Origin: Escherichia phage teqdroes | Sequence record: NC_054932.1 | DNA: 64,000 nucleotides | Direction: 5' to 3' (one strand) | Shown here: positions 2,481 through 38,768 of the stretch, piece by piece | How positions within the stretch are numbered: the first letter of the stretch is position 1 | Layout of the letters: each line of letters begins with the position of its first letter | Program-made: the position numbers and the translations under genes | Notes under the pieces: model-generated | The model's input: the letters and a program-made list of their open reading frames with translations, nothing else | What the model was told of the DNA's origin: nothing | The model's database searches: none

Positions 2481-3449
2481 ATGAAAACTGTAACTATCAA
2501 TAAGGGTATCTACTTCGGTAAAGAAATCTCTGGAACTTTTGAGCTCTTAGGCGAATGGTTCCCAGATAATGCTCCGGTAGATGCACAAGGAGATGGTAAA
2601 GTTTTTGTTGAAATTGACGGTAAACGTCGCGGTGTTTGGGTTTACAAATCAGACATTTCATATGATGGTGTAAAAGTTGAAGAAGTTAAAGAATCGTATG
2701 AAGATATGAAAACCCGCATTAATAAAAGATTTAATGTTATGGGAATGATGACGAATGGTATTATTAATGGAAACATTCGTTCATTAATTATCTCGGGAGC
2801 AGCAGGTATTGGTAAAACGTATTCTTTAGATAAAGCTTTAAATAAAGCAAATGATATTGGATACATTGAGTATAAAAGCATTAATGGTAAAATCTCTGGT
2901 ATCGGTCTTTATGAACAGCTTTGGAATAATCGTGAAGAGAATTCTGTCCTTTTGATTGATGATGTGGATGTTTTCTCTGATATGGACATTCTTAATCTTC
3001 TGAAAGCTGCTCTGGACACTGGAGAAACCCGTAAAGTCTGCTGGAGCACTGCATCTTCTTACTTAGAAGAAAAAGGCATTGAGCGCGAGTTTGAATTTAA
3101 AGGAACGATTGTTTTTATCACAAACGTTGACATTGACCGCGAATTAGACCGTGGTACTAAACTTGCTCCACATTTACAAGCATTAGTGTCCCGCTCAGTT
3201 TATTTGGATTTGGGTGTTCACACTAATGAAGAAATTATGGTCAGGGTTGAAGATGTTATTCTTTCAACTGACATGATGCAAAAGCGCGGTCTTTCTGATG
3301 AAGAAACTTATAAAGCATTATCATGGATGAAAGTCAATGTTAATCGTTTACGCAATGTTTCACTGCGTACTGCGCTTTATCTTGCTGACTTTATTATGAC
3401 CGACAAAAACGGTTGGGAAGAAATCGCTGAGGTTACTCTTCTGAAATAA
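2481..3449 (+). CDS. P-loop NTPase (Walker A and B), 322 aa
   Basis: SGAAGIGKT Walker A and LLIDDVD Walker B; position matches T4 nrdC.10. Confidence 0.65.
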   Translation: MKTVTINKGIYFGKEISGTFELLGEWFPDNAPVDAQGDGKVFVEIDGKRRGVWVYKSDISYDGVKVEEVKESYEDMKTRINKRFNVMGMMTNGIINGNIRSLIISGAAGIGKTYSLDKALNKANDIGYIEYKSINGKISGIGLYEQLWNNREENSVLLIDDVDVFSDMDILNLLKAALDTGETRKVCWSTASSYLEEKGIEREFEFKGTIVFITNVDIDRELDRGTKLAPHLQALVSRSVYLDLGVHTNEEIMVRVEDVILSTDMMQKRGLSDEETYKALSWMKVNVNRLRNVSLRTALYLADFIMTDKNGWEEIAEVTLLK

Positions 3450-3538
3450 TTCATAAGAGGATTTCTATGACAAAAAGGCAGTTCAGAAATAGATTATATG
3501 GACTGCCATCAAAAAGATGACTAGAATTAAACTGGTAA

Positions 3539-3853
3539 ATGGAGGTAATGATGTTATACTCAAAGGCTCGTGAAATTTACGAAACTAAAATTAAAGAAGC
3601 AGTATTTCAGTTCGCAACGACAATGCGTTGGACAAATGACTGGGAATACTCCAAGAATCATAAGAAGCCCTTGGTGACAAGAAAGGCTCATATGTTAGTG
3701 TTAATAGACCGTGAGCAGATTAAAGCCCGAGAAGCTCTCCAGAATCATAAAAAGGCTGCCTTTGAATGGTTTATGGATAACACTGCTCCTGAGACTAAGA
3801 AAGCAGTGAGCGCTTGGTTCAGTGGAAAAAATTGTGAAAGAAGTTTCTTTTAG
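3539..3853 (+). CDS. hypothetical protein, 104 aa
   Basis: ORF track. Confidence 0.5.
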   Translation: MEVMMLYSKAREIYETKIKEAVFQFATTMRWTNDWEYSKNHKKPLVTRKAHMLVLIDREQIKAREALQNHKKAAFEWFMDNTAPETKKAVSAWFSGKNCERSFF

Positions 3854-3855
3854 TT

Positions 3856-3885
3856 GTTTACAAGACTGTTCCTCTGTGGTATTAT
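3856..3885 (+). promoter_or_regulatory. T4-type early promoter
   Basis: GTTTAC, 18-bp spacer, TGG-TATTAT. Confidence 0.55.
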
Positions 3886-3910
3886 ACAACTAACTACGGA
3901 GGAACAGAAA

Positions 3911-4438
3911 ATGAATGCTAAAGATATTTTCAACTTGGTAAACTACAATGATGGTAAATTTAAATCTGAAGCTCAAAGCAAGTTCTTTAATGATGTCTCA
4001 ATCGGTGGTGAAATCACGGTTGATGGAGGACAAATTTACAAATCCCGTTGGAATTGGATCGTTATTATCGATGAGATTGGTATTGTAGAAATTTACAAGA
4101 ATACGAATAAAAATCGTACATTACACTGGTCTCGTGATACTAACGAACAGTACAAAAAGGATAAAGCATCTAAATTATCTCGTGTAACTCAAGAAGATAT
4201 TGAGTTCATCAAGAAAGATATTTTGATGTATGATAACTTAATTGCTGAAGAGCAAGCTGTTATTGATAAATTTGACGAGATTAAAGCTTCTCGTGAAATT
4301 CCTGATTTTATGAAAGAATCAGTAAATGAACGATACACTCTCATTTCAGAGCGTATTGAAACTTACAAAAAGCAAAGAGCTGAACGCCAGAACACTCTTC
4401 GGAAGTTTGAAGAACGGTTAAAGACGGTACTCGCATAA
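3911..4438 (+). CDS. hypothetical protein, 175 aa
   Basis: ATG after GGAGG Shine-Dalgarno; the ORF-track start at 3854 lies inside the promoter. Confidence 0.55.
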   Translation: MNAKDIFNLVNYNDGKFKSEAQSKFFNDVSIGGEITVDGGQIYKSRWNWIVIIDEIGIVEIYKNTNKNRTLHWSRDTNEQYKKDKASKLSRVTQEDIEFIKKDILMYDNLIAEEQAVIDKFDEIKASREIPDFMKESVNERYTLISERIETYKKQRAERQNTLRKFEERLKTVLA

Positions 4439-4440
4439 CC

Positions 4441-4464
4441 GCTTTATACCAAGGATGGTATAAT
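4441..4464 (+). promoter_or_regulatory. promoter, MotA-box-like GCTTTA plus extended -10 TGGTATAAT
   Basis: GCTTTA 10 bp upstream of TGGTATAAT. Confidence 0.4.
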
Positions 4465-4493
4465 GGTTCTAAGCCCTTTTAATTGAGATTATT

Positions 4494-4901
4494 ATGAAAC
4501 AGTTGATAATTAAAAGATTGAATTTATTGATATGTTGTTTATGCGTAGTAGTTGCATATAGTTATTACGCAATTAATGATTATATGCATTATAAAGATTA
4601 TGATGTTACTGTAGTTAATACCTTTACAGGAACTCAAGGAAAGGGGTCTAGTTTATCGTTTATTGCTGTATATGAACTCAAAGACGGTTATAGATTTAGC
4701 GAATATATTTCACCAGAGATGTATTCATCAATAGAAAAAGGCGATAATATTACTGTAAGTTTACGTCCTTTCGACGTAAAACAGACATTGTTTGATAATA
4801 TTGTTTGGTTCTTTGGAATGGTATTAGTTCAATCTGTGTGTGGTGCTTATATAGTCTGTTCCATCTTATTCTGTATATTTAGTAAAATTGAAATTGAGTG
4901 A
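4494..4901 (+). CDS. hypothetical membrane protein, 135 aa
   Basis: ORF track; hydrophobic N- and C-terminal segments. Confidence 0.5.
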   Translation: MKQLIIKRLNLLICCLCVVVAYSYYAINDYMHYKDYDVTVVNTFTGTQGKGSSLSFIAVYELKDGYRFSEYISPEMYSSIEKGDNITVSLRPFDVKQTLFDNIVWFFGMVLVQSVCGAYIVCSILFCIFSKIEIE

Positions 4902-4908
4902 GGAAAAT

Positions 4909-5796
4909 ATGTCAGTAGTAATTAATAATGTCAATGCAGTAATTAAATCTTTAGTTAATAAAAAATTGAATGAATGGACTATACTTCGTCGTGGAGAGCC
5001 AGATAAATTTTTTCATAGATTTAACCCAACTTTGGATTTGAATGTTATTGACAGAGATGTTCATGCTGAAATTTTAGATAAATTTAAAGTTGATATTGGG
5101 TTTGGATTAGATAAACATTTACAACGAACAAACGGGTCTGGAATGGGTTTATCTAATCGCATCATGAAAGCCCTTAATAAAATTGGAGCGTTGTCTCGTA
5201 TTAACGCGAGTGAAATCCTTCGCAATTATAATAAAGGATATGACCTTTATGGTCGACTAATGCCGAAATTATCATTCGATCAAATGATTGCGGATTTGTG
5301 GGAAAATCAACGACGATTATTAGCATTAGGCGCTCGATTAGCTAAAGGTCTAGATAAACAAATGATTTTTAAGACCAATAATACAGAAGACCTTAAATGC
5401 TTTAAATTTAGTATTCGCGGCGATGATTATTACGTCAGAGCTCGCTCTACAGATTATGTTAATATGGGGCATCATCTCTGTTTAGCTTTTGAAGTTTTAA
5501 AAGAAGCCGGAACATTAGAATATGTGTCTGGTGCTAAATGCCCGATTGGTTCAAGTTGTATTTTAATTTATCGCCCGGATGAATCCAGTTTAACTAAATT
5601 GCCTACAAAACCTGTACCAGTTCGCAGTAATGAAAAACATTCTGAGCAAATTGATTATTTTAATAAGCAAATTGAAGAGCTGAATATTTCTATTCAACAG
5701 TATGACGATGAAATTTTCAGACTATCTGGATTGAGTAGTAAAGCTAAATCTGAGCGTGAAAAATTAATTAAAATTGTTGATTTACTTAAATCTTAA
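4909..5796 (+). CDS. hypothetical protein with C-terminal coiled-coil tail (family member A)
   Basis: ATG at 4909 after GAGGAAA; C-terminal roughly 45 aa are heptad-like and E/K/L-rich. Confidence 0.55.
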   Translation: MSVVINNVNAVIKSLVNKKLNEWTILRRGEPDKFFHRFNPTLDLNVIDRDVHAEILDKFKVDIGFGLDKHLQRTNGSGMGLSNRIMKALNKIGALSRINASEILRNYNKGYDLYGRLMPKLSFDQMIADLWENQRRLLALGARLAKGLDKQMIFKTNNTEDLKCFKFSIRGDDYYVRARSTDYVNMGHHLCLAFEVLKEAGTLEYVSGAKCPIGSSCILIYRPDESSLTKLPTKPVPVRSNEKHSEQIDYFNKQIEELNISIQQYDDEIFRLSGLSSKAKSEREKLIKIVDLLKS

Positions 5797-5804
5797 GGAA
5801 CACC

Positions 5805-6824
5805 ATGAAAACTCGTTCTCAAATTGAAGATATGGTTCGTAATGCCAGCTATACCCGTAATGTTATGACATTTTTGTGCCAAAATAATTTAGACCCTGAT
5901 AAAGTTAATCGTGATATTCACTTTAAGTATATGAATAGCAGTGAATGGTTACGTCATTTTAGTAAAGCGGGATATATTACACAAATGACTGCTCGTGAGC
6001 AGCTCACCGATTTCTGTAAAACTATTGATTATAAAAATCCTCTATTTGTTCAAGGCGTTGGTCAGAGTAAGGTTGATTTATCAACAGGATTTTTTAATCC
6101 AAATCATTATCGTATTGAATGGAGATTTATTGCTCTATTTCGTAAACAATTAAAGCAAATTTTGTCTACTGCTAGTCGATTAAAAGGCTCTGATATTAAC
6201 TTAAAGAATCTGAAATTTGATGGTTATACTCTTCAGATGGAAGTAAGACCGTTAAAAGAAAATAATAGAACTGCACGAATTAGCTTTAAACCTAATACAA
6301 AAAATTCTCTTTCAATTTGTGAATGCCTTAAATCACAGTTGACAGAAGCATTTAAGTATATGGATGTTGTTGCCGCTGTTCAGTCTAAGATTTTACCTCG
6401 TTTTGAGCGAAATTGGGAACATACAACAACATATGAACTTGATATGATCGTTTCATTTAAATATGATTTTTTGAGAAAAGACGAAGTCACGCAAGAGAAA
6501 AAGCAGGAAGTGCAAGATAACTTAAATTTATCTAATTGCTCATCAAACGATCCTAAATTTTGGATGTATAGCTCAGGTAATAAAGATGCATGGAAATTTA
6601 ATAAAGCGAATTTTCTTCCTATTGAAAATCCGAGTCTTAAACCTGTTGAAAAATGGCACGCGGATGCGATTGAGAAGTCTCTTAAGGCAGTAGATGATGA
6701 ACTCGTTAAAGCGACCAATGAAGTGTTAGAAGCTGAAAAGATGCTAGAAAAAGCACAAGAAAAAGTCAAAAATCTCACGAAGCAACGTTCTAAACTGAAC
6801 AACGCACTAAATGCACTAAACTAG
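5805..6824 (+). CDS. hypothetical protein with C-terminal coiled-coil tail (family member B), 339 aa
   Basis: ORF track; C-terminus EKMLEKAQEKVKNLTKQRSKLNNALNALN. Confidence 0.6.
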   Translation: MKTRSQIEDMVRNASYTRNVMTFLCQNNLDPDKVNRDIHFKYMNSSEWLRHFSKAGYITQMTAREQLTDFCKTIDYKNPLFVQGVGQSKVDLSTGFFNPNHYRIEWRFIALFRKQLKQILSTASRLKGSDINLKNLKFDGYTLQMEVRPLKENNRTARISFKPNTKNSLSICECLKSQLTEAFKYMDVVAAVQSKILPRFERNWEHTTTYELDMIVSFKYDFLRKDEVTQEKKQEVQDNLNLSNCSSNDPKFWMYSSGNKDAWKFNKANFLPIENPSLKPVEKWHADAIEKSLKAVDDELVKATNEVLEAEKMLEKAQEKVKNLTKQRSKLNNALNALN

Positions 6825-33510: not shown

Positions 33511-34938
33511 GTGGTAGAAATTATTCTTTCTCATCTCATATTTGATCAAGCTTATTTTTCAAAAGTTTGGCCATATATGGATTCAGAATATTTTGAAAGT
33601 GGTCCAGCTAAAAATACATTCAAATTAATTAAATCTCATGTCAACGAGTATCATAGCGTTCCATCTATTAATGCGTTAAATGTTGCATTAGAAAATAGTT
33701 CATTTACTGAAACAGAATATTCTGGTGTAAAAACACTTATTTCAAAACTGGCTGATTCTCCGGAAGACCACAGCTGGTTAGTAAAAGAAACAGAAAAATA
33801 TGTTCAGCAAAGGGCGATGTTTAATGCTACGTCTAAAATAATCGAAATTCAAACTAATGCTGAGCTTCCTCCGGAAAAACGAAATAAGAAAATGCCGGAT
33901 GTTGGTGCTATTCCTGACATCATGCGACAAGCATTATCAATTTCATTTGATAGCTACGTTGGCCATGATTGGATGGATGACTACGAAGCACGTTGGCTAT
34001 CTTATATGAATAAAGCTCGTAAGGTTCCATTTAAACTCAGAATTCTGAACAAAATTACTAAAGGCGGAGCTGAGACTGGAACACTGAACGTTTTAATGGC
34101 TGGCGTTAACGTTGGTAAATCATTAGGATTGTGTTCATTAGCAGCAGATTATTTACAGCTCGGACATAATGTTCTTTACATTTCCATGGAAATGGCAGAA
34201 GAAGTCTGTGCTAAGCGTATTGACGCTAACATGCTTGATGTTTCTCTTGATGACATTGATGATGGGCATATTTCTTACGCTGAATATAAAGGAAAAATGG
34301 AAAAATGGCGTGAGAAATCTACCCTTGGTCGTTTAATCGTTAAACAGTATCCTACTGGTGGAGCAGATGCTAATACATTTCGATCACTTTTAAACGAATT
34401 GAAGCTCAAGAAGAATTTTGTTCCAACAATCATTATTGTCGACTATCTAGGTATTTGTAAATCTTGCCGCATTAGAGTTTATTCAGAAAATAGTTACACA
34501 ACTGTTAAAGCTATCGCAGAGGAATTGCGTGCTCTGGCTGTTGAAACCGAAACTGTTCTTTGGACTGCAGCACAGGTTGGTAAACAAGCTTGGGATTCTT
34601 CTGATGTTAACATGAGTGATATCGCAGAATCTGCTGGTCTTCCAGCGACAGCCGATTTTATGCTTGCGGTCATTGAAACCGAGGAGCTAGCAGCTGCTGA
34701 ACAACAACTCATTAAGCAAATCAAATCACGATATGGCGATAAGAACAAATGGAATAAGTTTTTGATGGGCGTTCAAAAAGGAAATCAGAAATGGGTAGAA
34801 ATTGAACAAGATTCTACTCCAACTGAAGTGAGTGAGGTAGCAGGTTCACAACAGATACAAGCTGAGCAGAATCGCTATCAAAGAAATGAATCCACTCGAG
34901 CTCAGTTAGATGCTTTGGCAAATGAATTAAAATTTTAG
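33511..34938 (+). CDS. 41: replicative DNA helicase gp41, GTG start
   Basis: 475 aa; Walker A GVNVGKS; N-terminus MVEIILSHLIFDQAYF. Confidence 0.92.
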   Translation: MVEIILSHLIFDQAYFSKVWPYMDSEYFESGPAKNTFKLIKSHVNEYHSVPSINALNVALENSSFTETEYSGVKTLISKLADSPEDHSWLVKETEKYVQQRAMFNATSKIIEIQTNAELPPEKRNKKMPDVGAIPDIMRQALSISFDSYVGHDWMDDYEARWLSYMNKARKVPFKLRILNKITKGGAETGTLNVLMAGVNVGKSLGLCSLAADYLQLGHNVLYISMEMAEEVCAKRIDANMLDVSLDDIDDGHISYAEYKGKMEKWREKSTLGRLIVKQYPTGGADANTFRSLLNELKLKKNFVPTIIIVDYLGICKSCRIRVYSENSYTTVKAIAEELRALAVETETVLWTAAQVGKQAWDSSDVNMSDIAESAGLPATADFMLAVIETEELAAAEQQLIKQIKSRYGDKNKWNKFLMGVQKGNQKWVEIEQDSTPTEVSEVAGSQQIQAEQNRYQRNESTRAQLDALANELKF

Positions 34939-34967
34939 TTTACAAGCTGACAAGACTATGGTATAGT
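34938..34967 (+). promoter_or_regulatory. T4-type early promoter
   Basis: GTTTAC, 18-bp spacer, TGG-TATAGT. Confidence 0.55.
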
Positions 34968-34996
34968 AGTCTTGTTGGTTAAATGAGGAGATTGTT

Positions 34997-35179
34997 ATGG
35001 AATTGGTAAAGGTAGTTTTTATGGGGTGGTTTAAGAATGAAAGCATGTTTACTAAAGAAATCACAATGATGAAAGATGACGTTCAATGGGCTACTACTCA
35101 ATATGCTGAAGTTAATAAAGCATTAGTTAAAGCTTTCATTGATGACAAGAAAGTGTGCGAAGTGGATTGCCGAGGATAA
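34997..35179 (+). CDS. dmd: Dmd, antitoxin against host RnlA/LsoA
   Basis: 60 aa; sequence MELVKVVFMGWFKNESMF and position next to 41 match T4 Dmd as recalled. Confidence 0.85.
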   Translation: MELVKVVFMGWFKNESMFTKEITMMKDDVQWATTQYAEVNKALVKAFIDDKKVCEVDCRG

Positions 35180-35180
35180 T

Positions 35181-35438
35181 ATGCATATTGTTTTATTTAA
35201 ACCTACTCCGTATAACGTCAGGAAAAATACTCAATTCAAAGCACTTATTGCAGATACGTGGGAATTGGTGTTAGATATTCCAACAGAAGAAAGTCCTCCA
35301 TTTGGTCGAGTGGAATTTATTAAGTTTGCTGTACGTCCTACGAAGAGGCAGATTCGTCAGTATAAAAGGTATTTTCGTAAAATCGTTAAGCTAGAGAAAC
35401 AGTTTGTAACATGTGATTACGCAGAAGTTTTAAAATAG
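35181..35438 (+). CDS. hypothetical protein at the T4 61.4 position, 85 aa
   Basis: ATG after GAGGA, directly after dmd stop. Confidence 0.5.
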   Translation: MHIVLFKPTPYNVRKNTQFKALIADTWELVLDIPTEESPPFGRVEFIKFAVRPTKRQIRQYKRYFRKIVKLEKQFVTCDYAEVLK

Positions 35439-35440
35439 CT

Positions 35441-35470
35441 GTTTACTTTTGTTGGAAATTGAGATACTAT
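35441..35470 (+). promoter_or_regulatory. T4-type early promoter
   Basis: GTTTAC, 18-bp spacer, TACTAT. Confidence 0.55.
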
Positions 35471-35498
35471 ATAAACATAAACTACTGAGGAGATTATC

Positions 35499-35792
35499 AT
35501 GAAAAAATTTATTTTTGCTACAATTTTTACTTTGGCTTCTTGTGCTGCTCAGCCTGCTATGGCAGGATATGATAAAGATTTGTGTGAATGGTCTATGACT
35601 GCAGATCAGACTGAAGTTGAAACTCAAATTGAAGCGGATATTATGAATATCGTTGAGCGCGATCGTCCTGAAATGAAAGCTGAAGTGCAAAAACAACTTA
35701 AGTCTGGTGGTGTAATGCAGTATAATTATGTTCTGTATTGCGATAAAAACTTTAATAACAAAAATATCGTAACCGAAATCACAGGCGAATAA
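35499..35792 (+). CDS. sp: Spackle, periplasmic superinfection exclusion protein
   Basis: 97 aa with signal peptide; position as T4 sp. Confidence 0.8.
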   Translation: MKKFIFATIFTLASCAAQPAMAGYDKDLCEWSMTADQTEVETQIEADIMNIVERDRPEMKAEVQKQLKSGGVMQYNYVLYCDKNFNNKNIVTEITGE

Positions 35793-35793
35793 T

Positions 35794-36426
35794 ATGATTT
35801 ATTATATGCACAAAAATCCACCGTTTAAATACGGTAAATTTCCTGATGCACAATGTTATAATATAACGCCTGATGAAAATAACCGTGGATATCTTATTGG
35901 CACAATTTTTGTAATTGTTAAAGATAACGAAATCGTTGCCTGGGCAGATTTTAAAGGTACAACATATGATGTTAATCCGGTGCCTTTCACATATTACAAT
36001 TTAATGGATTTGGCATACGATTATAATTGGTTTAATCATGACACTTTGGCTCATATTGAAGGTGTAGGATTTGATATTTCATATTCGGAATACACTTTAA
36101 GCCCTATGAGTCGAGCCCATAAAGAACCTGAATATTTTTCATTTAGGAAACGTGTAAACTTTAAACGCAGCACAGAGTATGTCGGTGGAATCTTTGTTAA
36201 AGATAATCGAATTATTCGTATTAATTATCCTTTGAGCGTTAGTCAAAAAGATATTGATGTTGATTTAGATTTCACTGAAAATAATATTAATAATATTGCT
36301 TCTGTGTATTTTGGTATCGATCACAAAATTGTAATATGTGGATATGAATTACCGTTTGAAGAACAGCCTAAAGTAAAAGTTTCTATTGACGATCAAATTT
36401 TTAATGCTTTTATGAATAAAGGTTAA
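35794..36426 (+). CDS. hypothetical protein at the T4 61.2 position, 210 aa
   Basis: ORF track; C-terminal tail SIDDQIFNAFMNKG. Confidence 0.55.
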   Translation: MIYYMHKNPPFKYGKFPDAQCYNITPDENNRGYLIGTIFVIVKDNEIVAWADFKGTTYDVNPVPFTYYNLMDLAYDYNWFNHDTLAHIEGVGFDISYSEYTLSPMSRAHKEPEYFSFRKRVNFKRSTEYVGGIFVKDNRIIRINYPLSVSQKDIDVDLDFTENNINNIASVYFGIDHKIVICGYELPFEEQPKVKVSIDDQIFNAFMNKG

Positions 36427-36430
36427 TATG
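36382..36430 (+). repeat. direct repeat copy 1 (49 bp)
   Basis: 46 of 49 nt identical to 36740-36788. Confidence 0.8.
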
Positions 36431-36784
36431 TATAGTTCTGAATTTTCATATTTAAAAATGGAAAAAATTTCATACGATTTTATAGATGAAAAGGTTTATT
36501 ACAGTTTCCATGAACCGCGTTTTAATAGTGAGGTTGGGTTTATTGTAGTAAAAGACAATTTCATTTTAAAGATATATTCGGCATTAAAGGATTTTCACTA
36601 CGAAAATATTAACCTAAAATTTGATAAAGAAAACGTTCGTAATTGTGCAGTAACAATTACAGGAAATAAAGGTACATGTGTTATGCTATCTGATGAAATT
36701 AATGATTTACTAAATGATGCAGAAAATATTACTGCGCCATCTATTGATGACCAAATTTTTAATGCTTTTATGAATAGAGGTTAA
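36428..36784 (+). CDS. hypothetical protein at the T4 61.1 position, 118 aa
   Basis: ORF track; C-terminal tail SIDDQIFNAFMNRG. Confidence 0.55.
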   Translation: MYSSEFSYLKMEKISYDFIDEKVYYSFHEPRFNSEVGFIVVKDNFILKIYSALKDFHYENINLKFDKENVRNCAVTITGNKGTCVMLSDEINDLLNDAENITAPSIDDQIFNAFMNRG

Positions 36785-36788
36785 TATG
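36740..36788 (+). repeat. direct repeat copy 2 (49 bp)
   Basis: 46 of 49 nt identical to 36382-36430. Confidence 0.8.
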
Positions 36789-36950
36789 AAAACATATAAA
36801 GAATTTATTAAAGAAGATATGGTCGCTGGAGATTCAGGTGGTAATCCTGAAAATATCTCTACTGGAACAACGTCAGGCGCTGTAGTAAATAAAGGTCCTG
36901 AGCAGATTCCTAAAAAGAAAAAAGAGGAATCTAAAGAAAAAGAAGAGTAA
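36786..36950 (+). CDS. small K/E-rich hypothetical protein, 54 aa
   Basis: Not in ORF track; ATG within the repeat copy; fills gap before gene 61. Confidence 0.35.
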   Translation: MKTYKEFIKEDMVAGDSGGNPENISTGTTSGAVVNKGPEQIPKKKKEESKEKEE

Positions 36951-36952
36951 AA

Positions 36953-37981
36953 ATGTCATCAATACCTTGGATTGATAATGAGTTTGCATACCGTGCATTA
37001 GCTCATTTACCTAAATTCACACAAGTAAATAATAGTTCAACTTTTAAATTGCGGTTTAGATGTCCAGTTTGTGGAGATTCAAAAACCGACCAGAATAAAG
37101 CTCGTGGATGGTATTATGGTGATAATAATGAAGGAAATATTCATTGTTATAACTGTAATTATCATGCACCAATCGGAATATATTTAAAGGAGTTTGAACC
37201 TGATTTATATCGTGAGTATATCTTTGAAATAAGAAAAGAAAAAGGTAAAAGTCGTCCAGTAGAAAAACCTAAAGAACTTCCTAAGCAACCTGAGAAGAAA
37301 ATAATTAAATCTCTTCCGTCATGTGTTAGATTAGATAAACTGGCGGAAGACCATCCAATTATAAAATATGTAAAAGCTCGTTGTATTCCAAAGGATAAAT
37401 GGAAATATCTTTGGTTTACAACCGAATGGCCTAAATTAGTTAATAGCATAGCACCGGGAACATATAAAAAGGAAATACCTGAGCCTCGTCTTGTTATTCC
37501 AATTTATAATGCTAATGGAAAAGCTGAGTCTTTTCAAGGACGTGCATTAAAGAAAGATGCTCCCCAAAAATATATCACCATCAAAGCTTATCCTGAAGCA
37601 ACAAAAATTTACGGTGTTGAACGAGTTAAAGATGGTGATGTATATGTTCTAGAAGGACCCATCGATTCACTTTTTATTGAAAATGGTATAGCTATTACAG
37701 GTGGTCAATTAGACCTAGAAGTTGTTCCATTTAAAGATAGACGAGTGTGGGTTTTAGATAATGAACCTCGTCACCCTGACACTATCAAACGAATGACTAA
37801 ATTAGTTGATGCAGGAGAAAGGGTTATGTTTTGGGATAAATCTCCCTGGAAATCAAAAGATGTCAATGATATGATTAGAAAGGAAGGTGCAACCCCTGAA
37901 CAAATTATGGAATATATGAAAAATAATATTACCCAGGGGTTGATGGCTAAAATGCGGCTATCTAAATATGCTAAGATTTAA
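36953..37981 (+). CDS. 61: DNA primase gp61
   Basis: 342 aa; zinc ribbon CPVCGDS...CYNC and TOPRIM region. Confidence 0.92.
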   Translation: MSSIPWIDNEFAYRALAHLPKFTQVNNSSTFKLRFRCPVCGDSKTDQNKARGWYYGDNNEGNIHCYNCNYHAPIGIYLKEFEPDLYREYIFEIRKEKGKSRPVEKPKELPKQPEKKIIKSLPSCVRLDKLAEDHPIIKYVKARCIPKDKWKYLWFTTEWPKLVNSIAPGTYKKEIPEPRLVIPIYNANGKAESFQGRALKKDAPQKYITIKAYPEATKIYGVERVKDGDVYVLEGPIDSLFIENGIAITGGQLDLEVVPFKDRRVWVLDNEPRHPDTIKRMTKLVDAGERVMFWDKSPWKSKDVNDMIRKEGATPEQIMEYMKNNITQGLMAKMRLSKYAKI

Positions 37982-38178
37982 ATCAACCCAACTAAAGCAA
38001 ATGCTAAATCTACAAATGTATCAAGAGTAACTACTGGAATATTAACACCATGAGCAATAGCAATTGGTGATAAAACAAAATTCCAGAGTAAAATTCCTAT
38101 CATAGCAGAAATAGTAAAAGCTATACGTTTTTTATTACCTTTTATGGCATTAACAAGTGCCATTAATTTTTGTACCAT
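37978..38178 (-). CDS. antisense small membrane protein, 66 aa
   Basis: ORF track; AAGGAGG 4 nt before ATG on minus strand; two hydrophobic helices. Confidence 0.4.
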   Translation of the reverse strand: MVQKLMALVNAIKGNKKRIAFTISAMIGILLWNFVLSPIAIAHGVNIPVVTLDTFVDLAFALVGLI

Positions 38179-38190
38179 GTGTCCTCCTTA

Positions 38191-38215
38191 TTGCTTTATA
38201 TATTTATTGTATAAT
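38191..38215 (+). promoter_or_regulatory. MotA-dependent middle promoter for gene 56
   Basis: MotA box TTGCTTTA, 11 bp, TATAAT. Confidence 0.5.
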
Positions 38216-38249
38216 TAATCTACTAACCCATGAATTGAAAGGAAAAATA

Positions 38250-38768
38250 ATGGCATACTTTAATGAATGTTCACAACTGATTGAAGGCGCTGATAAAGCT
38301 CAAAATGAATACTGGGATATTCTCGGTGATGAAAAAGACCCGCTGCAGGTTATGCTTGATATGCAGAAATCTTTGCAGGTTCGTTTAGCTAAAGATAAAC
38401 CTGAATATAACCGTCATCCTGATGATTTGGCTACTGCCGGTGAAGTTGTTGATTGGCTACGTAATCAGAAAGACTATATTGATGATGAATTCCGTGAACT
38501 TCTGACTTCTCTTGGTGGTATGAGCAATGGCGAAAAAGATGCATCTGCTGTATGGAAACCTTGGAAGTCGCAACATGGTGAACGCCGTGAAACTCTGATT
38601 ACTGATTTGTCTCCGCAAGACCAGCTGGAAATTAAATTTGAAATGATTGATATTCTTCATTTCGTTCTGAATATGTTCCAAGGTCTTGGTCTTACTGCTG
38701 AAGAAATCTTTAAACTTTATTATCTGAAAAATGCAGAAAATTTCGCACGTCAAGACAGAGGTTATTAA
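38250..38768 (+). CDS. 56: dCTP pyrophosphatase gp56 (MazG-like)
   Basis: 172 aa from internal ATG; the ORF-track start at 38157 lies inside the promoter. Confidence 0.85.
   Translation: MAYFNECSQLIEGADKAQNEYWDILGDEKDPLQVMLDMQKSLQVRLAKDKPEYNRHPDDLATAGEVVDWLRNQKDYIDDEFRELLTSLGGMSNGEKDASAVWKPWKSQHGERRETLITDLSPQDQLEIKFEMIDILHFVLNMFQGLGLTAEEIFKLYYLKNAENFARQDRGY

Follow-up and report, generated by a model that had tools for sequence, protein, structure and literature searches.

The region between the replicative helicase gene 41 and the primase gene 61 was analysed in Escherichia phage teqdroes (NC_054932.1), a T4-like phage of the genus Tequatrovirus, within a window of 64,000 nucleotides (nt) of one strand. 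Six tightly packed open reading frames (ORFs) were found on the plus strand between the two replication genes, at exactly the coordinates where the original prediction, made from the letters alone, had placed six small genes. The region is an already described counter-defence cluster, labelled the "anti-TA island" (TA, toxin-antitoxin) by Srikant et al. 2022 (PMC9391042), in which two of the six genes (ORF118 and 61.1) remain uncharacterised. The genes, with their lengths in amino acids (aa), were as follows:

33511..34938, plus strand: gp41 replicative helicase, left flank (475-aa ORF; annotated as helicase gp41 in syntenic records)
34997..35179, plus strand: dmd (61.5), antitoxin-like RnlA/LsoA inhibitor (60 aa)
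35181..35438, plus strand: tifA (61.4), ToxN endoribonuclease inhibitor (85 aa)
35499..35792, plus strand: sp (61.3), Spackle (97 aa)
35794..36426, plus strand: adfA (61.2), anti-DarT factor A, Asn167 allele (210 aa)
36428..36784, plus strand: ORF118, single-domain paralogue of the C-terminal half of AdfA, phrog_4122 (118 aa)
36786..36950, plus strand: 61.1, with a decapeptide like a capsid-targeting sequence (CTS) at 36786-36815, a gp23-like segment and a Lys/Glu-rich tail (54 aa)
36953..37981, plus strand: gp61 primase, right flank, in the same operon (342-aa ORF; annotated as DNA primase in syntenic records)

The six ORFs are not chance readings, since they were conserved in phage records, were tightly spaced from stop to start and all matched Pfam or PHROG families. 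The 3-kb stretch 34500-37500 shared 99.1% identity with Shigella phage ESh33. More than 330 phage records reached 95% identity or better, 277 of them with full coverage, and synteny of the cluster was seen with T4, T2, RB69 and a Gaprivervirus. The genes were arranged in two groups, each behind one of the region's only two intergenic gaps. Within each operon, stop and start were 1-2 nt apart (TAA-T-ATG) and a GAGG-type ribosome-binding site preceded each start. The T4 anti-TA island (PMC9391042) shared the position between 41 and 61, the gene order, the strand, the two promoters and the ribosome-binding sites, and its proteins were 73-100% identical. It differed in that teqdroes carried the extra gene ORF118 between adfA and 61.1, and that the N-terminal half of teqdroes AdfA was RB69-like rather than T4-like, with Asn instead of His at residue 167. 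The RB69 island (positions 3318-6470 of comparison locus L004) was larger, with imm and imm.1 between tifA and sp, two extra small ORFs before dmd and two more between adfA and a 92-aa gp61.1.

Dmd matched Pfam PF17587 over its full length (1.6e-46, 156.9 bits, cut-off 27), was identical to T4 Dmd at 60/60 residues and matched PDB chain 5HY3_B 'Antitoxin Dmd', the chain crystallised with LsoA (1.8e-37). From its 100% identity to the tested T4 protein, it would be expected to neutralise RnlA/LsoA. Spackle matched Pfam T4_Spackle PF25676 over its full length (5.8e-45, 152.3 bits), was 94% identical to T4 Sp and matched PDB entries 6X6O/6XC0/7CN6 'Protein spackle' (7.7e-60). An N-terminal signal peptide was found in it, in line with chain 7CN6, which represents the mature form and begins at residue 23. 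The earlier recognition of Dmd and Spackle was thus confirmed by Pfam, by identity to T4 and by PDB matches. The accompanying statement that the other four ORFs had no assignable domains was wrong with current libraries, in which DUF7279, AdfA PF23813 (twice) and phrog_1823 were found. The original prediction also pointed to a ToxIN inhibitor near dmd and to an anti-DarT factor at 61.2 in T4, and this proved correct: the 85-aa protein was TifA, identical to T4 gp61.4 at 82/85 residues (96%), and the 210-aa protein was a full-length Pfam AdfA, 73% identical to T4 gp61.2.

TifA matched Pfam DUF7279 (5e-20, 71.6 bits, cut-off 24.5) and was encoded directly after dmd in the same operon, as in T4. 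The protein gp61.4 was renamed TifA by Srikant et al. as a protein inhibitor of ToxN (PMC9391042), and it was found by Guegler et al. to bind both ToxN and RNA, with residue 41 setting the strength of inhibition and K55, R56 and R59 being required for it (PMC10853763). These three basic RNA-binding residues were kept in teqdroes (...RPTKRQIRQ...). Residue 41 was Phe and not the Ser or His of the strong-inhibitor allele, which bears on strength and leaves family membership unaffected. Compared with the TifA proteins of T4, T2, T6 and RB69 (PMC10853763), the teqdroes protein was 96% identical to T4 and more than 96% identical to T2/T6-type sequences. It shared K55, R56, R59 and F41 with T4 and differed from it by three substitutions, A35T, C61Y and I83V. 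Wild-type T4 with F41 TifA needs gene amplification to overcome toxIN (PMC9391042), and F41 predicts a similarly weaker inhibition of ToxN in teqdroes.

Early promoters had been predicted at 34938 and 35441, and the two sites fared differently:

34939..34967, plus strand: early promoter of the dmd-tifA operon ((G)TTTACA, 17 nt, TG-n-TATAGT; 10/12 match)
35441..35470, plus strand: probable second early promoter ahead of sp (GTTTAC ... TACTAT)

The first site was the top plus-strand match of the promoter scan, carried an upstream extended -10 TG, was identical in T4 and had one change in T2. It corresponds to the T4 early promoter driving dmd-61.4 (PMC9391042). The second site, at only 8/12 against the sigma-70 consensus, was below the scan threshold, which counts against it, though it was conserved in T4 and T2 with GTTTAC and TGAGGAGATT laid out as in the first site. 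Both sites lay in the two intergenic gaps and coincided with promoter features annotated in phage Lutter. Matches to the sigma-70 consensus were no commoner than chance in this AT-rich region (17 found, 14.1 expected), and the case for the promoters was therefore made on position and conservation. In T4, dmd, 61.4, sp and 61.2 are early at the RNA and protein level and 61.1 is early at the RNA level (PMC9697503 supplement). Across the window, the late-promoter octamer TATAAATA occurred only 2 times against 10.3 expected, and there were 15 MotA-type patterns (TGCTTNA, 11-13 nt, TANNNT), 11 on the plus strand, where 4.5 would be expected; these counts fit an early/middle-transcribed genome segment. 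In addition, a perfect 9-bp inverted repeat with an 8-nt loop (34950-34958/34967-34975, ACAAGACTA / TAGTCTTGT) overlapped the -10 of the dmd promoter and was identical in T4, with one change in T2. It is reminiscent of the promoter-stem-loop modules of T4-type plastic regions.

Library searches with the 54-aa gp61.1 showed no Pfam family and phrog_1823 only. Several GenBank and UniRef records call the protein "major capsid domain-containing protein", a label that looks misleading and that comes from its similarity to gp23. Residues 2-38 aligned with T4 gp23 57-93 at 43% identity over 37 residues (pairwise E 1e-8), a segment that spans the end of the gp23 propeptide and the N-terminus of mature gp23*. 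The hidden Markov model of the gp61.1 family scored 30 bits against gp23 and at most 6 bits against 2000 shuffled copies, and a search of the whole PDB gave matches to gp23 chains only. In this alignment E10|D11 of gp61.1 fell on gp23 E65|A66, which is the gp21 maturation cut because deposited mature gp23* chains start at residue 66. The residues I8-K9-E10|D11 fit the gp21 site (hydrophobic-x-Glu|cut) in register with gp23 L63-T64-E65|A66. Unlike gp23, gp61.1 had no HK97-type fold at all, and it ended in a Lys/Glu-rich tail. The T4 sequences compared were gp23 (L010, 25-1587) and ipII and ipIII (L012, 7397-8396).

The N-terminal decapeptide of gp61.1, MKTYKEFIKE, was identical at 8/10 positions to MKTYQEFIAE, the CTS of T4 internal proteins IPII and IPIII (Mullaney & Black 1996, via PMC9026906), and shared Y4, F7, I8 and E10 with it. 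Positions 4 and 7 of the CTS govern targeting and positions 8 and 10 processing, and the decapeptide is sufficient to load foreign proteins into heads (PMC9026906). No other ORF in the window had a CTS-like N-terminus. The hydrophobic-x-Glu motif and the core EDMVAGD..GTTSGAVVNKGPEQIP were kept in all 17 clusters of the gp61.1 family, across three genera. In RB69, the 92-aa gp61.1 had a 35-residue N-terminal extension before the conserved cleavage motif. Compared with the T4 internal proteins, gp61.1 is far smaller, lies outside the ip loci, is unreported in virions and has a mature part that resembles gp23 and not an internal protein. The gp23 segment FGSFLTE|A itself agrees with the CTS at four places, where position 4 is aromatic, 7 is Phe, 8 is Leu or Ile and 10 is Glu, and the CTS may have been derived from the end of the gp23 propeptide. 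The idea that gp61.1 imitates the Gol peptide, which triggers Lit, was not supported, as the similarity ended at gp23 93-94 and Gol presumably lies just downstream of this point.

From these similarities gp61.1 is probably a capsid-targeted pro-peptide, or packaged head peptide, and not an antitoxin. It would be loaded into proheads via its CTS-like N-terminus, the gp21 protease would cut it after Glu10 to leave a 44-residue peptide in the head, and this peptide might be injected. Three observations weigh against packaging. The cluster contained no late promoter TATAAATA, gp61.1 was not detected in a T4 time-course proteome (PMC9697503 supplement) and it was not mentioned in a T4 head mass-spectrometry paper. 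The first matters less, and early transcription of 61.1 is no objection, since ipI, ipII and ipIII are also early-class RNA genes (PMC9697503 supplement). As for the proteomes, a 44-residue Lys-rich peptide would be easy to miss. No link between 61.1 and the CTS was found in the literature.

Alternatively, gp61.1 could be made early, stay in the cytoplasm and imitate the N-terminal region of gp23. It would then compete for some host or phage factor that recognises the nascent capsid protein; EF-Tu, a chaperone, the gp21 protease and a defence that senses the capsid are examples. The significant similarity to gp23 57-93, the place of 61.1 in an early operon beside counter-defence genes and the conservation of the core across three genera all agree with such a decoy. 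However, a cytoplasmic decoy would not need to match the CTS at all four mapped positions, as the decapeptide does, and we consider this explanation rather unlikely. The packaged peptide and the cytoplasmic mimic are compatible, as a packaged peptide could act after injection.

AdfA matched Pfam PF23813 along its entire length (3e-139, 461.7 bits, residues 1-210 on the 211-position profile) and was 83% identical to RB69 AdfA. The full-length two-unit architecture, the C-terminal DDQIFNAFM tail and the location between sp and 61 were all found, as in the AdfA proteins of RB69 and T4 (LeRoux et al. 2022; PMC11825919). Its AlphaFold2 (AF2) model (mean predicted local distance difference test, pLDDT, 69.6) showed two beta5-alpha units and a C-terminal helix. 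The position that decides the binding of DarT1 in RB69 AdfA was located in teqdroes at:

36292..36294, plus strand: switch codon AAT, Asn167 (aligned with RB69 AdfA R164 and T4 H165)

AdfA binds DarT1 with His at residue 164 (RB69 numbering) and not with Arg (PMC11825919). In an alignment of T4, RB69 and 14 cluster representatives, the switch residue was His in 13 representatives including T4, Arg in the RB69-type and Asn only in the teqdroes cluster. The teqdroes codon AAT is one base from CAT. Asn167 was placed by the AF2 model in helix 162-173, after the five-stranded sheet. The allele is in the minority, as 37/485 AdfA-bearing records of the phage genome collection were identical over the 43 residues around it; the next-closest group (RB68, wV7) differed by one residue and had His. 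The frequency was taken from this collection as a scan of IMG/VR gave only 2 loci.

The tested alleles of AdfA thus carry either Arg (inactive) or His (active), and teqdroes has Asn. As His is the state shown to be active, Asn167 lowers the claim that this AdfA neutralises that DarT1 and leaves its family membership unaffected. Since the residue is a known specificity switch, we infer that the Asn167 form of AdfA is directed at some DarT variant different from the E. coli DarT1 examined to date. Two points tell against this suggestion: Asn167 could simply be a weak or inactive allele, and AdfA is dispensable in T4 for DarTG1 resistance, where AdfN (30.3) is the main factor (PMC11825919), so that the contribution of any AdfA allele in the native phage is uncertain.

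The adfA gene was also found to be a mosaic, as its N-terminal half (35794-36100) was almost identical to that of RB69, a phage of another genus (Mosigvirus), and its C-terminal end was T4-like, without the 5-residue insertion of RB69. Two origins for the gene were examined and not adopted. An internal tandem duplication was suggested by a comparison of the N- and C-terminal halves (hhalign E 0.003, with only 10% probability), by a second weak match of an ORF118-type protein to the AdfA N-terminal half (E 0.03) and by AF2 secondary structure that repeats as beta5-alpha, and was not established. A fusion of the 145-aa and 122-aa cassettes of Gaprivervirus EAWsc9 is not claimed, as the body of the 145-aa protein had no significant sequence match to the AdfA N-terminal half and only the tail matched; Foldseek did link the folds.

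ORF118 matched Pfam AdfA at 31.9 bits (cut-off 27), at profile positions 113-211 only, and was 37% identical to AdfA residues 111-210 (BLASTP E 6e-11). It forms its own PHROG, phrog_4122. The full-length two-unit architecture was absent and nothing in it matched AdfA residues 1-110, so that, set beside RB69 and T4 AdfA, it covers just the C-terminal half and the tail. It fits best as a single-domain subfamily paralogous to AdfA. The AF2 model of ORF118 (pLDDT 81.4; predicted template modelling score 0.70) ran from five strands through a helix-strand-helix stretch to a C-terminal helix whose placement was poor. A Foldseek search against viral models gave relatives from T4-like phages only (118, 157, 212 and 145 aa), among them a 212-aa AdfA-type protein at E 9e-5. 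Both the helix of the switch residue and the C-terminal DDQIFNAFM helix were kept, which would suit a one-domain AdfA-type binder. Some public records label the ORF118-like gene 'DUF2528 domain-containing protein', which looks misleading.

The AdfA and ORF118 family was small, with 16 + 5 clusters at 90% identity. An exhaustive profile search of 1.84 billion representatives gave five real relatives only, all of them phage proteins of 118-210 aa, and no bacterial ancestor of the family. A further hit, P0024 (1921 aa, coiled coil), was rejected as a low-complexity false positive. No solved structure related to the family was found.

The boundary between adfA and ORF118 and that between ORF118 and 61.1 were marked by a direct repeat, D1:

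36382..36430, plus strand: direct repeat D1, copy 1 (adfA 3' end plus the TAA-T-ATG junction)
36740..36788, plus strand: direct repeat D1, copy 2 (ORF118 3' end plus the TAA-T-ATG junction)

The copies of D1 (49 nt) were 94% identical, covered the last 45 nt of adfA and of ORF118, and were spaced by 358 nt, which is exactly one ORF118 cassette. The 3' end of T4 adfA was identical to copy 2, the ORF118-type, and not to copy 1. This is the result expected of a deletion between the D1 copies; read in reverse, an insertion would lead to the teqdroes layout. Phage records showed three arrangements, with adfA only in approximately 330, adfA and ORF118 in approximately 156 and ORF118 only in approximately 136. 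We infer that the repeat explains them, the ORF118 cassette being gained or lost by recombination between the 49-nt copies. Gaprivervirus EAWsc9 carried two other tail-bearing cassettes, of 145 and 122 aa, in the same slot. The 145-aa cassette (L005, 2062-2869) is labelled 'serine/threonine protein kinase', which looks misleading.

The peptide encoded by the repeat, DDQIFNAFM(N/K)R(G/D), was C-terminal in every member of the AdfA/ORF118 family. Its nine core codons showed synonymous differences only in five copies from three genera (GAC/GAT, CAA/CAG, ATT/ATA, GCT/GCA/GCC and TTT/TTC), which indicates that selection acts on the peptide and is not confined to the DNA. In the AF2 models of both AdfA and ORF118, the tail appeared as a low-confidence helix detached from the domain, as would be expected of a motif that folds on a partner. 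As a working guess, the tail would be one helix common to proteins with variable recognition domains, used for docking or for contact with the toxin. A reading of the tail as a sliding-clamp-binding motif is pure speculation, as QIFNAFM does not fit the PIP or QL[SD]LF consensus.

Conservation of the tail at the level of the DNA, where it would serve as a recombination linker or hold a promoter, was weighed against selection on the peptide. The D1 copies are 94% identical as DNA in spite of the divergence of the gene bodies, the stop/start junction falls within the repeat, the T4 layout is what recombination between the copies would yield, and the annotation of phage Lutter has 'promoter' features on both copies. 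A MotA-dependent middle promoter inside D1 was nevertheless rejected, as the would-be MotA box TGCTTTTA does not match the TGCTTNA consensus, does not figure in the 15 matches of the window and is changed further in RB69 and EAWsc9. The synonymous-only differences of the DDQIFNAFM codons across three genera and the retention of the tail in highly diverged relatives of 120-145 aa also speak for the peptide, and a purely DNA-level cause is unlikely.

The case of T2 bears directly on ORF118. In T2, ORF118 was present at 97% identity as the sole gene of the slot, without 61.2, and T4 had no gene between 61.2 and 61.1. T2 was reported to be a phage that "naturally lacks an adfA homolog", with more than 75% of the full length required by the authors (PMC11825919); the statement holds for full-length AdfA and not for the family. 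T2 without adfN cannot plaque on DarTG1 cells (PMC11825919). As T2 carries ORF118 and is still DarTG1-sensitive without adfN, native levels of ORF118 do not neutralise that DarT1, and its target, if there is one, must lie elsewhere. ORF118 probably neutralises a different toxin. This proposal is weakened by the T2 result and by the searches of sequence and structure, in which no relatives outside T4-like phages that would give a mechanistic handle were found.

The T2 result would also agree with ORF118 being a functionless leftover or spare adfA module that is kept only via recombination between the repeated 3' ends; the gene is dispensable, as it is missing from T4 and approximately 330 other records, and the 49-nt direct repeats around it would delete it precisely. 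Against such a leftover, ORF118 was intact, of constant length (118 aa) and at least 90% identical in approximately 290 records, and it was the sole family member in the approximately 136 T2-type genomes. Diverged orthologues (43-48% identical, 119-125 aa) that share the tail were found in other genera. The compact fold was modelled confidently (pLDDT 81), and the body is only approximately 37% identical to AdfA, which makes it old and not a recent fragment. A gene without function is therefore a quite improbable explanation, and a single-domain binder of the AdfA type is preferred.

Finally, gene 61 is directly preceded by ORF118 and 61.1, which are translationally coupled to it, but it is very improbable that the two encode accessory factors of the 41/61 primosome, co-transcribed with the primase. 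Library and structure searches showed no similarity to replication proteins, phages with near-identical 41 and 61 differ in whether they have these genes, and the relatives of the two products are AdfA and head proteins. Downstream of gene 61 (37978-38768), a 66-aa minus-strand ORF was followed by a putative dCTPase gp56-like ORF. The dam methyltransferase gene was absent there, unlike in T4, and the layout was as in phage KRT47.

Overall, the analysis established that the four known genes are orthologues of their T4 counterparts, how the operons are laid out and how the families are related. The likely explanation of the locus is a T4-type anti-TA island of two early units, with an Asn167 allele of AdfA, an ORF118 cassette and a packaged gp61.1. 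The two units would together be this phage's copy of the T4 island of small stoichiometric inhibitors. In unit 1, transcribed from the promoter at 34939, Dmd would bind and block the RNases RnlA/LsoA, and TifA would bind ToxN with RNA to give an inactive ribonucleoprotein trap. Unit 2 would run from the promoter near 35441 through sp, adfA, ORF118 and 61.1 to the primase gene 61, with Spackle exported to the periplasm to block the gp5 lysozyme of a superinfecting phage and AdfA binding a DarT ADP-ribosyltransferase. The toxin-neutralising role that the original prediction had proposed for the four unassigned ORFs was upheld for TifA and AdfA, through their published orthologues; ORF118 would be a paralogue with another target, and 61.1 probably belongs to head biology.

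The island as a whole adds nothing new. The Asn167 allele, the paralogy of ORF118, the 49-nt repeat with its invariant tail and the likeness of gp61.1 to the CTS and gp23 appear to be new, and the leads they offer are specific and cheap to test, but modest and incremental. A broader proposal joins two of them: that gp61.1 is an overlooked packaged, possibly injected head peptide, with the CTS as its pro-sequence and a copy of gp23 residues 66-93, standing on its own, as its body, and that AdfA is a modular family with specificity variants for DarT-type toxins. We put this combination forward tentatively, as possible and somewhat short of even odds.

If it is true, AdfA would be a modular family of 118-216-aa cassettes, with a variable beta5-alpha recognition domain and an invariant DDQIFNAFM warhead or docking helix, and T2 would after all carry a member of the adfA family, at odds with what was published. 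ORF118 and Asn167 AdfA would be natural specificity variants for further DarT-type toxins. They offer natural variants for mapping the recognition of DarT-type ADP-ribosyltransferases, and may help to explain why the presence or allele of adfA fails to predict DarTG sensitivity among T-even phages. For the swapping of counter-defence cassettes between T4-like genomes, the 49-nt repeat supplies a concrete mechanism. If gp61.1 is packaged, T4 heads would hold one more processed peptide than is listed, and a virion-delivered factor would be encoded within a counter-defence island. The CTS of the internal proteins would then be linked in evolution to the gp23 propeptide, or scaffold-binding, segment, and this likeness would be a testable hint on how the CTS docks to the scaffolding core, a step still called unresolved in reviews (PMC9958956).

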